Virus record (IMG/VR): IMGVR_UViG_646564533_000005
DNA from: a virus
Taxonomy: Duplodnaviria > Heunggongvirae > Uroviricota > Caudoviricetes
DNA length: 64,000 nt
Direction: 5' to 3' (one strand)
Shown: piece by piece, positions 24,326-29,069 of the stretch
Layout: every line of letters begins with the position of its first letter
Position numbering within the stretch: the first letter of the stretch is position 1
Notes under the pieces: generated by a model
Databases searched by the model: none
Told to the model about the DNA's origin: nothing
What the model saw: the letters and a program-made list of their open reading frames with translations, nothing else
Made by a program: the position numbers and the translations under genes

Positions 24326-24515
24326 ACTGCAGGCGCTGCGTCAGGCGCGCCTTGATTTATTAACCGGTAAACGGGTGGTGTCGGTCCAGAAAGACGGTCG
24401 CAGAATTGAATATACGGCAGCCTCTCTGGATGAGCTTAACCGTGCGATCAATGATGCGGAGTCAGTTCTGGGGACAACCCACCGCCGCCGTCGTCCGCTG
24501 GGAGTGAGGTTATGA
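24309..24515 (+). CDS. W: head-tail joining protein W
   Basis: 68 aa, ...LLTGKRVVSVQKDGRRIEYTAASLDEL... lambda gpW-like. Confidence 0.8.
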   Translation: MVTVAELQALRQARLDLLTGKRVVSVQKDGRRIEYTAASLDELNRAINDAESVLGTTHRRRRPLGVRL

Positions 24516-26104
24516 AACGAACGCCAGTCCTGATTGATGTGAATGGCGTTCCGCTTCGTGAGAGTCTCAGCTACAACGGGGGCGGCGCAGGATTTGGCGG
24601 GCAAATGGCGGAGTGGTTACCACCGGCGCAGAGTGCTGATGCGGCTCTGTTGCCTGCATTGCGTCTGGGGAATGCCCGGGCAGATGATCTGGTACGCAAT
24701 AACGGTATCGCGGCCAATGCAGTGGCCCTGCATAAGGATCATATTGTCGGGCACATGTTTCTTATCAGTTACCGTCCCAACTGGCGCTGGCTTGGGATGC
24801 GGGAGACCTCAGCAAAAAGTTTTGTCGATGAGGTGGAAGCGGCCTGGTCGGAATATGCAGAAGGGATGTTTGGCGAGATCGATGCGGAAGGTAAACGCAC
24901 ATTTACGGAGTTTATCCGTGAAGGTGTGGGCGTTCATGCGTTTAACGGCGAAATCTTTGTGCAGCCGGTCTGGGATACGGAGACCACGCAGTTATTTCGT
25001 ACGCGTTTTAAAGCCGTAAGTCCGAAACGGGTGGACACGCCAGGACACGGTATAGGGAACCGCTTTCTGCGGGCCGGGGTGGAGGTCGATCGGTATGGAC
25101 GGGCCGTTGCGTACCATATCTGTGAGGATGATTTTCCGTCCTCTGGAAGTGGACGCTGGGAGCGGATCCCGCGTGAACTTCTCACCGGACGTCCGGCCAT
25201 GCTGCATATTTTCGAGCCGGTGGAGGATGGGCAGAGTCGTGGGGCTAATCAGTTTTATAGCGTCATGGAGCGTCTGAAGATGCTCGACTCCCTGCAGGCC
25301 ACGCAGCTCCAGTCGGCCATAGTGAAAGCCATGTATGCGGCCACAATCGAAAGTGAACTTGATACTGAAAAAGCATTTGAATATATCGCGGGTGCGCCGC
25401 AAGGTCAGCAGGATAATCCGCTTATTAATATTCTGGAGAAGTTCACCCGCTGGTATGACACGAATAACGTGACGCTGGGCGGCGTCAAAATTCCGCACCT
25501 TTTTCCCGGGGATGATCTGAAACTGCAGACTGCGCAGGATTCAGACAATGGATTTTCTGCGCTTGAACAGGCGTTGTTGCGGTATATAGCCGCCGGTCTT
25601 GGCGTTTCCTACGAACAGTTGTCCCGTGATTACTCGAAGGTCAGTTACTCAAGTGCCCGCGCCTCAGCCAATGAGTCGTGGCGTTATTTTATGGGACGGC
25701 GAAAATTTATTGCTTCCCGGCTGGCCACGCAGATGTTTTCCTGCTGGCTGGAAGAGGCGCTTCTTCGGGGAATTATCCGCCTGCCACGGGCGCGTTTTGA
25801 TTTTTATCAGGCGCGTTCTGCCTGGTCACGGGCAGAGTGGATTGGTTCAGGAAGAATGGCCATTGACGGGCTCAAGGAGGTTCAGGAATCAGTGATGCGC
25901 ATTGAGGCCGGACTGAGCACGTATGAGAAAGAGCTGGCGCTGATGGGTGAGGATTATCAGGAGATTTTCCGCCAGCAGGTCAGGGAATCTGCAGAGCGGG
26001 AAAAAGCCGGACTCTCACGTCCGGTGTGGATAGCGCAGGCGTATCAGCAGCAGATAGCGGAGAGTCGCAGGCCGGAAGAGGAGACAACACCACGTGAGAC
26101 GTAA
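24512..26104 (+). CDS. B: portal protein (gpB)
   Basis: 530 aa, lambda gpB-like. Confidence 0.95.
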   Translation: MKRTPVLIDVNGVPLRESLSYNGGGAGFGGQMAEWLPPAQSADAALLPALRLGNARADDLVRNNGIAANAVALHKDHIVGHMFLISYRPNWRWLGMRETSAKSFVDEVEAAWSEYAEGMFGEIDAEGKRTFTEFIREGVGVHAFNGEIFVQPVWDTETTQLFRTRFKAVSPKRVDTPGHGIGNRFLRAGVEVDRYGRAVAYHICEDDFPSSGSGRWERIPRELLTGRPAMLHIFEPVEDGQSRGANQFYSVMERLKMLDSLQATQLQSAIVKAMYAATIESELDTEKAFEYIAGAPQGQQDNPLINILEKFTRWYDTNNVTLGGVKIPHLFPGDDLKLQTAQDSDNGFSALEQALLRYIAAGLGVSYEQLSRDYSKVSYSSARASANESWRYFMGRRKFIASRLATQMFSCWLEEALLRGIIRLPRARFDFYQARSAWSRAEWIGSGRMAIDGLKEVQESVMRIEAGLSTYEKELALMGEDYQEIFRQQVRESAEREKAGLSRPVWIAQAYQQQIAESRRPEEETTPRET

Positions 26105-27599
26105 TCTTTCACACATTATTGCCGCAGCATTCAATGAACCGCTGCTTCTGGAGCCCGCCTATGCGCGGGTTTTCTTTTGCGCGCTCGGGCGCGAGATGGG
26201 GGCAGCAAGTCTTTCGGTACCACAACAGCAGGTACAGTTTGATGCTCCCGGAATGCTGGCTGAAACGGACGAGTACATGGCCGGAGGTAAACGACCGGCC
26301 CGTGTTTACAGGGTGGTGAACGGTATTGCTGTACTGCCGGTGACCGGCACGCTGGTGCACCGGCTGGGTGGTATGCGGCCATTTTCCGGAATGACAGGCT
26401 ATGACGGTATTGTCGCCTGTCTTCAGCAGGCAATGGCGGATAGCCAGGTGCGGGGCGTACTGCTGGACATTGACAGTCCGGGCGGGCAGGCCGCCGGCGC
26501 GTTTGACTGCGCTGACATTATTTACCGCCTCCGTCAGCAGAAGCCGGTCTGGGCACTGTGCAATGACACGGCCTGTTCTGCAGCCATGCTGCTGGCGTCG
26601 GCCTGCTCCCGACGACTGGTTACCCAGACATCCCGTATCGGCTCCATTGGCGTGATGATGAGCCATGTCAGCTATGCCGGTCATCTGGCGCAGGGCGGTG
26701 TGGATATCACGCTGATTTACTCAGGGGCGCACAAGGTGGATGGCAATCAGTTTGAAGCGTTGCCGGCAGAGGTTCGCCAGGACATGCAGCAGCGGATTGA
26801 TGCGGCGCGCCGGATGTTTGCCGAAAAAGTGGCGATGTTTACCGGTCTGTCTGTTGATGCAGTCACGGGAACAGAGGCCGCCGTTTTTGAAGGTCAGTCT
26901 GGCATTGAGGCCGGGCTGGCGGATGAATTAATCAATGCGTCGGATGCCATCAGTGTGATGGCCACGGCGCTGAACAGTAATGTCAGAGGAGGCACTATGC
27001 CGCAATTAACTGCAACGGAAGCCGCCGCGCAGGAGAACCAGCGAGTGATGGGGATCCTGACATGCCAGGAAGCGAAAGGACGTGAACAGCTTGCCACGAT
27101 GCTGGCAGGACAACAGGGCATGAGCGTTGAACAGGCCCGGGCGATTCTGGCCGCGGCGGCACCGCAGCAGCCGGTGGCATCCACGCAGAGTGAAGCCGAT
27201 CGCATTATGGCGTGTGAAGAAGCGAACGGTCGTGAACAACTGGCGGCAACGCTGGCGGCGATGCCGGAGATGACGGTGGAAAAAGCCCGCCCGATCCTGG
27301 CTGCTTCACCGCAGGCGGATGCCGGACCATCACTCCGTGATCAGATCATGGCACTGGATGAGGCAAAAGGGGCTGAGGCGCAGGCTGAACAGCTGGCTGC
27401 CTGCCCGGGAATGACTGTGGAGAGCGCCCGGGCTGTGCTGGCTGCGGGATCAGGTAAGGCAGAACCGGTCTCTGCATCCACAACCGCCATGTTTGAACAT
27501 TTCATGGCGAACCATTCACCGACAGCGGTACAGGGTGGCGTGCCACAGACGTCAGCAGACGGTGATGCGGACGTAAAAATGCTCATGGCCATGCCATGA
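26094..27599 (+). CDS. C: head maturation protease/scaffold (gpC with nested Nu3-like C-terminus)
   Basis: S49 peptidase region plus C-terminal Ala/Glu-rich segment with three about 34-aa repeats. Confidence 0.9.
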   Translation: MRRNLSHIIAAAFNEPLLLEPAYARVFFCALGREMGAASLSVPQQQVQFDAPGMLAETDEYMAGGKRPARVYRVVNGIAVLPVTGTLVHRLGGMRPFSGMTGYDGIVACLQQAMADSQVRGVLLDIDSPGGQAAGAFDCADIIYRLRQQKPVWALCNDTACSAAMLLASACSRRLVTQTSRIGSIGVMMSHVSYAGHLAQGGVDITLIYSGAHKVDGNQFEALPAEVRQDMQQRIDAARRMFAEKVAMFTGLSVDAVTGTEAAVFEGQSGIEAGLADELINASDAISVMATALNSNVRGGTMPQLTATEAAAQENQRVMGILTCQEAKGREQLATMLAGQQGMSVEQARAILAAAAPQQPVASTQSEADRIMACEEANGREQLAATLAAMPEMTVEKARPILAASPQADAGPSLRDQIMALDEAKGAEAQAEQLAACPGMTVESARAVLAAGSGKAEPVSASTTAMFEHFMANHSPTAVQGGVPQTSADGDADVKMLMAMP

Positions 27600-27635
27600 A
27601 GTCAGTGCTGACCATCAACAGGAGGTTTTTACAAT

Positions 27636-27983
27636 ATGGTGACGAAAACCATCACTGAACAGCGTGCGGAAGTACGTATTTTTGCCGGTAATGATCCGGC
27701 TCATACCGCCACAGGCAGCAGCGGGATTTCCTCGCCAACACCGGCACTGACGCCCCTGATGCTGGATGAAGCCACCGGGAAACTGGTGGTCTGGGACGGA
27801 CAGAAAGCCGGTAGTGCGGTTGGCATACTGGTACTGCCGCTTGAAGGCACAGAGACGGCGCTGACGTATTACAAGTCGGGAACCTTTGCGACGGAGGCAA
27901 TCCACTGGCCTGAAAGTGTGGATGAACACAAAAAGGCAAATGCCTTTGCCGGCAGTGCCCTGAGTCACGCGGCGCTGCCGTAA
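27636..27983 (+). CDS. D: head decoration protein (gpD)
   Basis: ...GNDPAHTATGSSG...PLMLD...KLVVWDG... lambda gpD-like. Confidence 0.85.
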   Translation: MVTKTITEQRAEVRIFAGNDPAHTATGSSGISSPTPALTPLMLDEATGKLVVWDGQKAGSAVGILVLPLEGTETALTYYKSGTFATEAIHWPESVDEHKKANAFAGSALSHAALP

Positions 27984-28040: not shown

Positions 28041-29069
28041 ATGGGATTGTTTACGACCCGCCAGTTACTCGGTTATACCGAACAAAAAGTTAAATTTCGT
28101 GCGCTGTTTCTGGAGCTGTTTTTCCGCCGTACAGTGAATTTCCATACCGAAGAGGTGATGCTGGACAAAATTACCGGAAAAACGCCGGTGGCGGCCTATG
28201 TCTCCCCGGTTGTTGAAGGAAAAGTGCTGCGTCATCGTGGTGGTGAAACCCGCGTGTTGCGTCCGGGCTACGTCAAGCCGAAACACGAATTTAATTACCA
28301 GCAGGCGGTTGAGCGCCTTCCTGGTGAAGATCCATCTCAACTGAATGATCCGGCTTACCGCCGTCTGCGTATCATTACCGATAACCTCAAACAGGAAGAG
28401 CACGCGATTGTCCAGGTGGAAGAAATGCAGGCGGTAAATGCTGTGTTGTATGGCAAATACACTATGGAAGGAGACCAGTTCGAGAAAATTGAGGTCGATT
28501 TTGGCAGGTCGACGAAGAATAACATCACTCAGGGTAGTGGTAAGGAGTGGTCAAAACAGGATCGTGACACGTTCGATCCTACACATGATATTGACCTCTA
28601 CTGCGACCAGGCCAGCGGTCTTGTGAATATTGCCATTATGGACGGTACCGTCTGGCGTCTTCTGAATGGTTTTAAGCTGTTCCGCGAAAAACTGGATACC
28701 CGTCGCGGTTCAAATTCTCAACTCGAAACGGCAGTGAAAGATCTGGGCGCAGTGGTGTCCTTCAAGGGGTATTACGGCGATCTGGCTATTGTTGTGGCGA
28801 AAACGTCTTATATAGCAGAAGACGGTATCGAAAAACGTTATCTTCCAGATGGCATGCTGGTTCTGGGGAATACTGCTGCAGATGGGATCCGTTGTTACGG
28901 TGCCATTCAGGATGCTCAGGCGTTGTCCGAAGGTGTGGTGGCCTCTTCCCGTTATCCGAAACACTGGCTGACGGTAGGGGATCCCGCCCGTGAATTTACC
29001 ATGACGCAGTCCGCGCCGCTGATGGTGTTGCCGGACCCGGATGAGTTTGTGGTGGTACAGGTGAAATAA
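28041..29069 (+). CDS. E: major capsid protein (gpE)
   Basis: 342 aa collinear with lambda gpE. Confidence 0.95.
   Translation: MGLFTTRQLLGYTEQKVKFRALFLELFFRRTVNFHTEEVMLDKITGKTPVAAYVSPVVEGKVLRHRGGETRVLRPGYVKPKHEFNYQQAVERLPGEDPSQLNDPAYRRLRIITDNLKQEEHAIVQVEEMQAVNAVLYGKYTMEGDQFEKIEVDFGRSTKNNITQGSGKEWSKQDRDTFDPTHDIDLYCDQASGLVNIAIMDGTVWRLLNGFKLFREKLDTRRGSNSQLETAVKDLGAVVSFKGYYGDLAIVVAKTSYIAEDGIEKRYLPDGMLVLGNTAADGIRCYGAIQDAQALSEGVVASSRYPKHWLTVGDPAREFTMTQSAPLMVLPDPDEFVVVQVK

Follow-up and report, generated by a model that had tools for sequence, protein, structure and literature searches.

Three Repeats in the Scaffold Region of a Lambdoid gpC Homologue as the Probable Tri Boxes of a Phage 21-Type Head Operon in Escherichia coli

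Introduction

Among the described head proteins that are closest to the locus studied here, the protease C and the scaffold Nu3 of phage lambda and the products of genes 5 and 6 of phage 21 serve as the main references. The lambda protease reportedly cleaves the scaffold and itself inside the prohead, a result ascribed to Medina et al. in 2010, and gpNu3 is said, in the title of one paper, to be an intrinsically disordered assembly catalyst. Nu3 is an essential scaffold of lambda (PMC10695390). Its interactions, collected from published work and from yeast two-hybrid, comprise Nu3-Nu3, Nu3-C, Nu3-B, and Nu3-E, the last of which was reported from yeast two-hybrid (PMC3224144).

In phage 21, the corresponding genes were deposited as the GenBank record M81255 ('Bacteriophage 21 head gene operon'), in which gene 5, the nested gene 6, and a ribosome-binding site (RBS) are annotated. 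This record also contains three repeat_region features, designated the Tri1 box, the Tri box, and the Tri3 box, with the note 'function unknown; putative'. The paper behind the record is presumably that of Smith and Feiss (Gene, 1993). A 'capsid protease/scaffolding protein' and a nested 'scaffolding protein' are also annotated in the phage 21 genome OL657228, and the RBS is located at the homologous place in the phage 21 records.

The present analysis concerns a stretch of 64,000 nucleotides from the IMG/VR virus record IMGVR_UViG_646564533_000005 (hereafter the window) and, within it, three repeats near the C-terminus of a 501-aa protein. When the boxes of M81255 are mapped to the window, they fall at 27064-27167, 27204-27314, and 27345-27458 and coincide with three peptides that had been picked out in a sequence-only reading of this DNA. 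As judged from sequence comparison, the repeats very probably correspond to the Tri1, Tri, and Tri3 boxes of a head operon of the phage 21 type in an E. coli lambdoid prophage and represent three old and diverged copies of a module of about 40 residues that is single in lambda. The triplication itself is already known, being marked in the old GenBank record M81255.

Head Operon and Nested Scaffold Gene

The repeats form part of an open reading frame in the +2 frame, that of a prohead protease/scaffold gene (26094-27599, + strand; 501 aa, GTG start, stop codon included), which is the homologue of lambda gpC and phage 21 gp5. Its S49 peptidase domain covers aa 146-293 (26529-26972, + strand) and was detected in the 501-aa protein with Pfam PF01343 (E = 6.9e-34, 117.5 bits, cut-off 24.9), while the PHROG 53 family 'head maturation protease' matches the same protein with E = 1.4e-227. 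The gene had been read from its sequence as a gpC homologue, and both the S49 domain and an identity of 53% to lambda C over aa 3-372 agree with this.

The head operon is arranged in the order large terminase, a 68-aa W-like gene, portal, the 501-aa gene, decoration, and major capsid. The portal gene (24512-26104) is the upstream neighbour of the 501-aa gene, the decoration gene (27636-27983, 115 aa) is the downstream neighbour, and the major capsid gene (28041-29069, 342 aa) lies beyond the latter. The neighbouring head proteins share 50-66% identity with lambda A, W, B, D, and E.

Within the 501-aa gene, an AGGAGG RBS (26987-26992, + strand), recognized by direct reading of the sequence, is followed by an ATG at 26997. 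This codon opens an in-frame nested gene (26997-27599, + strand; 200 aa, 20.6 kDa) homologous to lambda Nu3 and to phage 21 gene 6, in accordance with the annotation in M81255 and OL657228, and the start Met of the nested gene is kept in the three-copy relatives. A separate, putative scaffold protein would be made from this internal start with its own RBS. The region shared by the protease and the nested gene is the one that contains the repeats, in agreement with their earlier placement in a scaffold-like C-terminus. No covering model for the scaffold part was found in Pfam-A or NCBIfam. In the RefSeq/PGAP annotation of an identical gene (L008 5105-6610), a single CDS, 'S49 family peptidase', is given and the nested scaffold gene is omitted.

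Extent and Organization of the Repeats

Because self-blastp of the protein gave the diagonal only, the copies were compared by segment-wise Smith-Waterman alignment combined with composition-preserving shuffles. The copy-versus-copy local alignment scores were 83-101, compared with 25-26 +/- 5 for the shuffles (z = 10.9-15.7), and none of the 2000 shuffles reached an observed score. In a scan of the six-frame translation of the 64-kb window with a module profile built from 18 repeat copies, exactly three matches were detected, at 27048-27164, 27195-27317, and 27333-27452, with i-Evalues of 1e-20 to 1e-21.

The repeat array spans approximately 27033 or 27048 to 27458. Three copies had previously been placed at 27050-27420; their number is supported by both the alignment scores and the six-frame scan, but the end is not, since a boundary at 27420 drops the last ~13 residues of the third copy. 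Similarly, the repeat length of about 34 aa proposed at that time describes the conserved core (the Tri boxes measure 35, 37, and 38 aa) and not the period, which is 53 aa and then 48 aa from start to start. The period exceeds the core of 35-42 aa because short linkers part the copies.

Module 1 (aa 319-358; 27048-27167, + strand; profile match of 67 bits) includes the Tri1 box, and AlphaFold2 (AF2) predicts helices at residues 6-21, 30-37, and 44-53 of the 200-aa scaffold, the first of which reaches upstream to ~27012 (aa 307). It is followed by linker 1 (QPVASTQS; 27168-27191, + strand), whose length differs between relatives and which falls below a pLDDT of 50 in the 200-aa model (residues 57-63). 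Module 2 (aa 367-408; 27192-27317, + strand; 71 bits) includes the Tri box and is predicted to form helices at residues 66-71, 80-87, and 94-103. Linker 2 (DAGPS; 27318-27332, + strand) corresponds to the gap between two profile matches and lies in a block with a mean pLDDT of 64. Module 3 (aa 414-455; 27333-27458, + strand; 66.5 bits) includes the Tri3 box, with predicted helices at residues 113-118, 127-134, and 141-151.

Outside the repeat, the protein ends in a C-terminal tail of 46 aa (27459-27596, + strand), which contains an F..FM motif and a terminal LLM..P and for which AF2 helices at residues 160-173 and 191-196 are predicted with low confidence. The tail is not a fourth copy (z = -1.3 to 0.1 against the repeats), and its residues F166 and M170 are nearly invariant among relatives.

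At the DNA level, Tandem Repeats Finder returned nothing, so that the repeat is visible in the protein only, and a seed-based repeat search yielded only short, chance-like families. The repeat cores share 58-65% DNA identity, and identity at third codon positions is only 36-42%; the duplication is therefore old, and selection on the protein has preserved it. Pfam-A contains no model for the module. A helix-hairpin-helix match (Pfam PF00633) in module 3 only was rejected (13.0 bits against a cut-off of 24, E = 0.096).

Two further observations concern individual sites within the array. At aa 427 in module 3 (27372-27374), the Arg that is nearly invariant in the EAKGRE motif has been replaced by Ala (KGAEAQAE, that is, G-A-E), which is seen in the phage 21 clade only; the third module retains GRE in Salmonella, Providencia, and other three-copy relatives. 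The loss of this Arg in the phage 21 clade may reflect relaxed function of module 3. In addition, the 'CII binding sites' (TTGYNNNNNNTTGY) annotated within gene 6 in OL657228 correspond to 27002-27015 and 27236-27249 of the window (- strand), the second being inside the Tri box. This pattern occurs 14 times in the window, compared with 15.7 +/- 4.3 expected, and the sites were therefore regarded as chance matches.

Relationship to Lambda C and Nu3

Lambda C (J02459 4418-5737) has one module, at aa 362-401, in contrast to the three of the window protein. The lambda copy aligns with each window copy with z = 13-21, and each of the lambda-type Nu3 PHROG profiles 8399, 8940, and 17040 matches the window protein in three stretches. 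The protease parts of the two proteins are 60.9% identical; they occupy the same position in the head operon and have a common C-terminal tail. In lambda, AGGAGG also precedes a Met, at aa 309 of C, which is homologous in position to the ATG at 26997.

The two proteins differ in the composition of the scaffold region. The conserved GLAD motif, with which the protease domain ends, is separated from the first module by 84 aa in lambda and by 45 aa in the window protein, and the net gain of 62 aa in gpC corresponds to two extra modules minus the shorter lead. The sequence-only reading had described the protein as longer than lambda C and had suggested an expansion of the scaffold domain, which the occurrence of the same repeats in lambda C would have made unremarkable. 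The greater length was confirmed by the net +62 aa, and the scaffold, at 200 aa (20.6 kDa), is larger than that of lambda (131 aa, 13.4 kDa), where Nu3 was taken as the 131-aa reading frame and J02459 itself annotates a 201-aa nu3. Since lambda C carries a single copy only, the description as a scaffold expansion relative to lambda is correct.

Predicted Structure of the Module

The 200-aa scaffold was modelled with AlphaFold2 using 16 aligned relatives. In this model, each repeat adopts a helix-helix-helix arrangement with a pLDDT of 74-80, and the linkers have values from below 50 to 64. The overall values (mean pLDDT 67.8, pTM 0.26) are as expected for beads on a string. A single repeat modelled separately reached a pLDDT of 82.9 and formed a three-helix bundle. 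Each copy is thus predicted to be a small three-helix bundle, and the copies are predicted to be arranged as beads on flexible linkers. The nearest solved folds to the module model belong to small three-helix domains that bind proteins, namely protein A/affibody, RuvA domain III, and UBA/CUE domains; at the sequence level, no match to the module was found among PDB chains.

Distribution and Copy Number

In E. coli, the three-copy form is widespread. A 611-bp three-copy segment was matched with at least 80% coverage in 1863 of 5426 complete genomes (1869 with any match), in up to five places per genome, and is annotated as 'S49 family peptidase'. The best match, which is 100% identical to window positions 26990-27600, was found in strain 2013C-4465 (NZ_CP015241.1), where the segment occurs in five places; this genome therefore harbours several lambdoid prophages whose head genes are of the same type. 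In NZ_CP015241.1, a gene for a PerC-family regulator is located just upstream of the terminase genes. The one-copy segment of lambda was detected in 3221 of the 5426 genomes.

With regard to sequenced phages, a tblastn search with the 200-aa scaffold part yielded phage 21, with 98.5% identity. The query is covered to at least 80% by 20 records, and those listed are of the three-copy type; viable phages with three copies are 21, 4A7, ev017, D2, 1W, 3W, and Gifsy-1, and several PhiR phages are also listed. The other 93 matching phage records are mostly of the lambda type, with an alignment over approximately 40% of the query.

On a broader scale, a 42-position module profile was compared with 1.84 billion representative proteins, and 1217 of them matched at E <= 1e-3. 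Among the best 150 of the 1217, one copy is present in 137, two copies in 10, and three copies in 3, in a list that favours multi-copy proteins because scores add up. These best 150 carriers comprise proteins of ~415-550 aa and short proteins with a median of 140 aa, the latter of which look like nested or separate scaffolds. Pfam S49 is present in 55 of 56 long carriers, and in long and short carriers alike the last module ends 46-50 residues (median) before the C-terminus. The conserved motif of the module is EAKGRE...GMT. The carrier of the module is thus almost always either an S49 prohead protease or a short protein of scaffold size. As 137 of the best 150 carriers have a single copy near the C-terminus of an S49 protease or scaffold, one copy is the norm and the multi-copy forms are a minority. 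Two other searches were less informative for this purpose: a whole-protein search with one genome per species recovered no more than 4 loci, which is not enough to survey copy numbers, and a word-indexed homologue search returned mostly gene fragments.

Taken together, the triplication is ordinary, because it is annotated in phage 21, its module is present in lambda, and about one third of complete E. coli genomes have the three-copy form.

History of the Triplication

Three-copy relatives from E. coli, Salmonella, Providencia, and other, unstated sources share 45-94% identity with the window protein and can be aligned with it copy by copy. In a neighbour-joining tree of the repeats, built from 42 columns and without support values, one cluster comprises the first copies and a separate group the second and third. 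This grouping of the copies suggests that a single old triplication took place in the lineage of phage 21 and Gifsy-1, before the E. coli, Salmonella, and Providencia versions split.

Later changes in copy number are also seen among close E. coli relatives. One E. coli protein (P0026) has four copies, of which copies 2-4 are nearly identical, indicating a recent expansion; the four-copy form was not found among the sequenced phages of the collection. Two proteins (P0019 and P0022) have two copies as a result of in-register deletions, and in two others (P0016 and P0008) copy 2 is partly deleted. Independent two-copy forms are present in the distant carriers P0153, P0104, P0151, and P0107, and the two copies of P0153 are joined by a PPTPPTPPTPP linker.

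In addition, lambda C is fused in frame to unrelated sequence in three proteins, one with ~400 unrelated N-terminal residues (P0131) and two with C-terminal extensions (P0125 and P0123). These are probably rearranged lambda derivatives or artefacts of assembly or gene calling.

Possible Roles of the Module

How the module acts can be proposed tentatively, at somewhat less than an even chance for the mechanism as a whole. The modules would be protein-contact units of the scaffold (gp6/Nu3) and of the protease that shares the same C-terminus, so that both proteins would stay within the shell during its assembly, held against the major capsid protein and/or one another. In that case, the three-copy form would be trivalent, offering three contact points per chain, and lambda would combine one module with a longer disordered lead. 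Once assembly was done, the S49 protease would degrade the modules. The module could bind the coat protein, the portal, or the protease, or it could pair with itself, and it is also conceivable that the conserved 46-aa tail, instead of the modules, is the real coat-binding element.

The latter idea leads to a rather doubtful but substantial alternative, in which the modules serve self-association or bind the portal or protease, acting in oligomerisation or in an initiator complex, and the 46-aa tail binds the coat. The scaffolds of P22, phi29, and 80alpha bind coat via their extreme C-terminus, which counts in favour of this division of labour, and all architectures have, beyond the last module, a tail of ~46-50 aa in which an F..FM motif is conserved. 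It was also reported that lambda Nu3 self-associates and interacts with C and B; however, a Nu3-E interaction was likewise reported in yeast two-hybrid (PMC3224144), and the tail is modelled at low confidence. According to another proposal, which is unlikely, the extra copies are neutral padding: unequal recombination would vary their number, and the modules would replace the long disordered lead of lambda Nu3 so that the length of the scaffold stays workable. The range of one to four copies among relatives, with the in-register deletions of P0019 and P0022 and the recent expansion of P0026, fits this proposal, as do two measures of length. Multi-copy forms have a lead of 41-45 aa ahead of the first module, compared with a median of 84 aa for single-copy ones, and the 227 aa that separate GLAD from the C-terminus barely exceed the single-copy range of 140-223 aa. 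On the other hand, the three copies are still recognisable though synonymous sites are near saturation, and each is conserved as a distinct copy across E. coli, Salmonella, and Providencia, which speaks for selection acting on every one of them. Two-copy variants are rare as well, in that coverage is less than 80% in 6 of 1874 E. coli records and the variant clusters contain 1-4 sequences.

It is hardly conceivable that the repeats are an artefact of an alanine-rich, low-complexity composition. The scaffold part does contain 22% Ala, and a tandem repeat was not detected at the DNA level, but the observed scores lie beyond those of all composition-preserving shuffles (0/2000), and the same EAKGRE...GMT module recurs in the 1217 representative proteins at a fixed architectural position. 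If the modules are contact units, as tentatively preferred here, a more specific form of this reading may be considered, although it is itself doubtful: the module would be the element that gives specificity when lambda-type S49 scaffolds and proteases dock to the capsid protein or the portal, and the copy number of 1-4 would be selected for valency or reach and not be set by neutral drift.

The value of the locus as a discovery is small, the triplication having long been marked in M81255 and the same allele being present in about one third of complete E. coli genomes. The natural series of one-, two-, three-, and four-copy scaffolds nevertheless constitutes a ready set of variants with which two questions can be asked, namely, which partner the module has and what role valency plays in the assembly of a T=7 shell.

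Comparison with Known Systems

The module can be compared with several known proteins at different levels. Generic three-helix binding domains have the same predicted topology and size, with 40-42 residues aligned at 2.1-2.9 A. The P22 scaffold has a small helical coat-binding element near its C-terminus and is removed before packaging, a resemblance in the way of working only; its coat-binding helix-turn-helix, taken as a solved domain, gave neither a sequence match nor a fold match to the module.

Within the lambdoid head operons, the resemblance is one of common architecture. The Gifsy-1 'prohead protease; Lambda gpC homolog' and its Salmonella and Providencia relatives also have three modules, each of which can be aligned with its counterpart in the window protein, and the same tail; identity is 45-64%. 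Phage 21 is by far the closest: its gene 5 and the window gene are both 1506 nt long and collinear, with 99.07% nucleotide identity and 6 aa differences, and no frameshift or indel was seen in the 1506-base alignment. The Tri1 and Tri3 peptides are identical in the two proteins, and Tri2 differs by one residue (A373V). The phage 21 form and the window form thus show allelic differences only, the window gene being located in a chromosomal prophage of E. coli.
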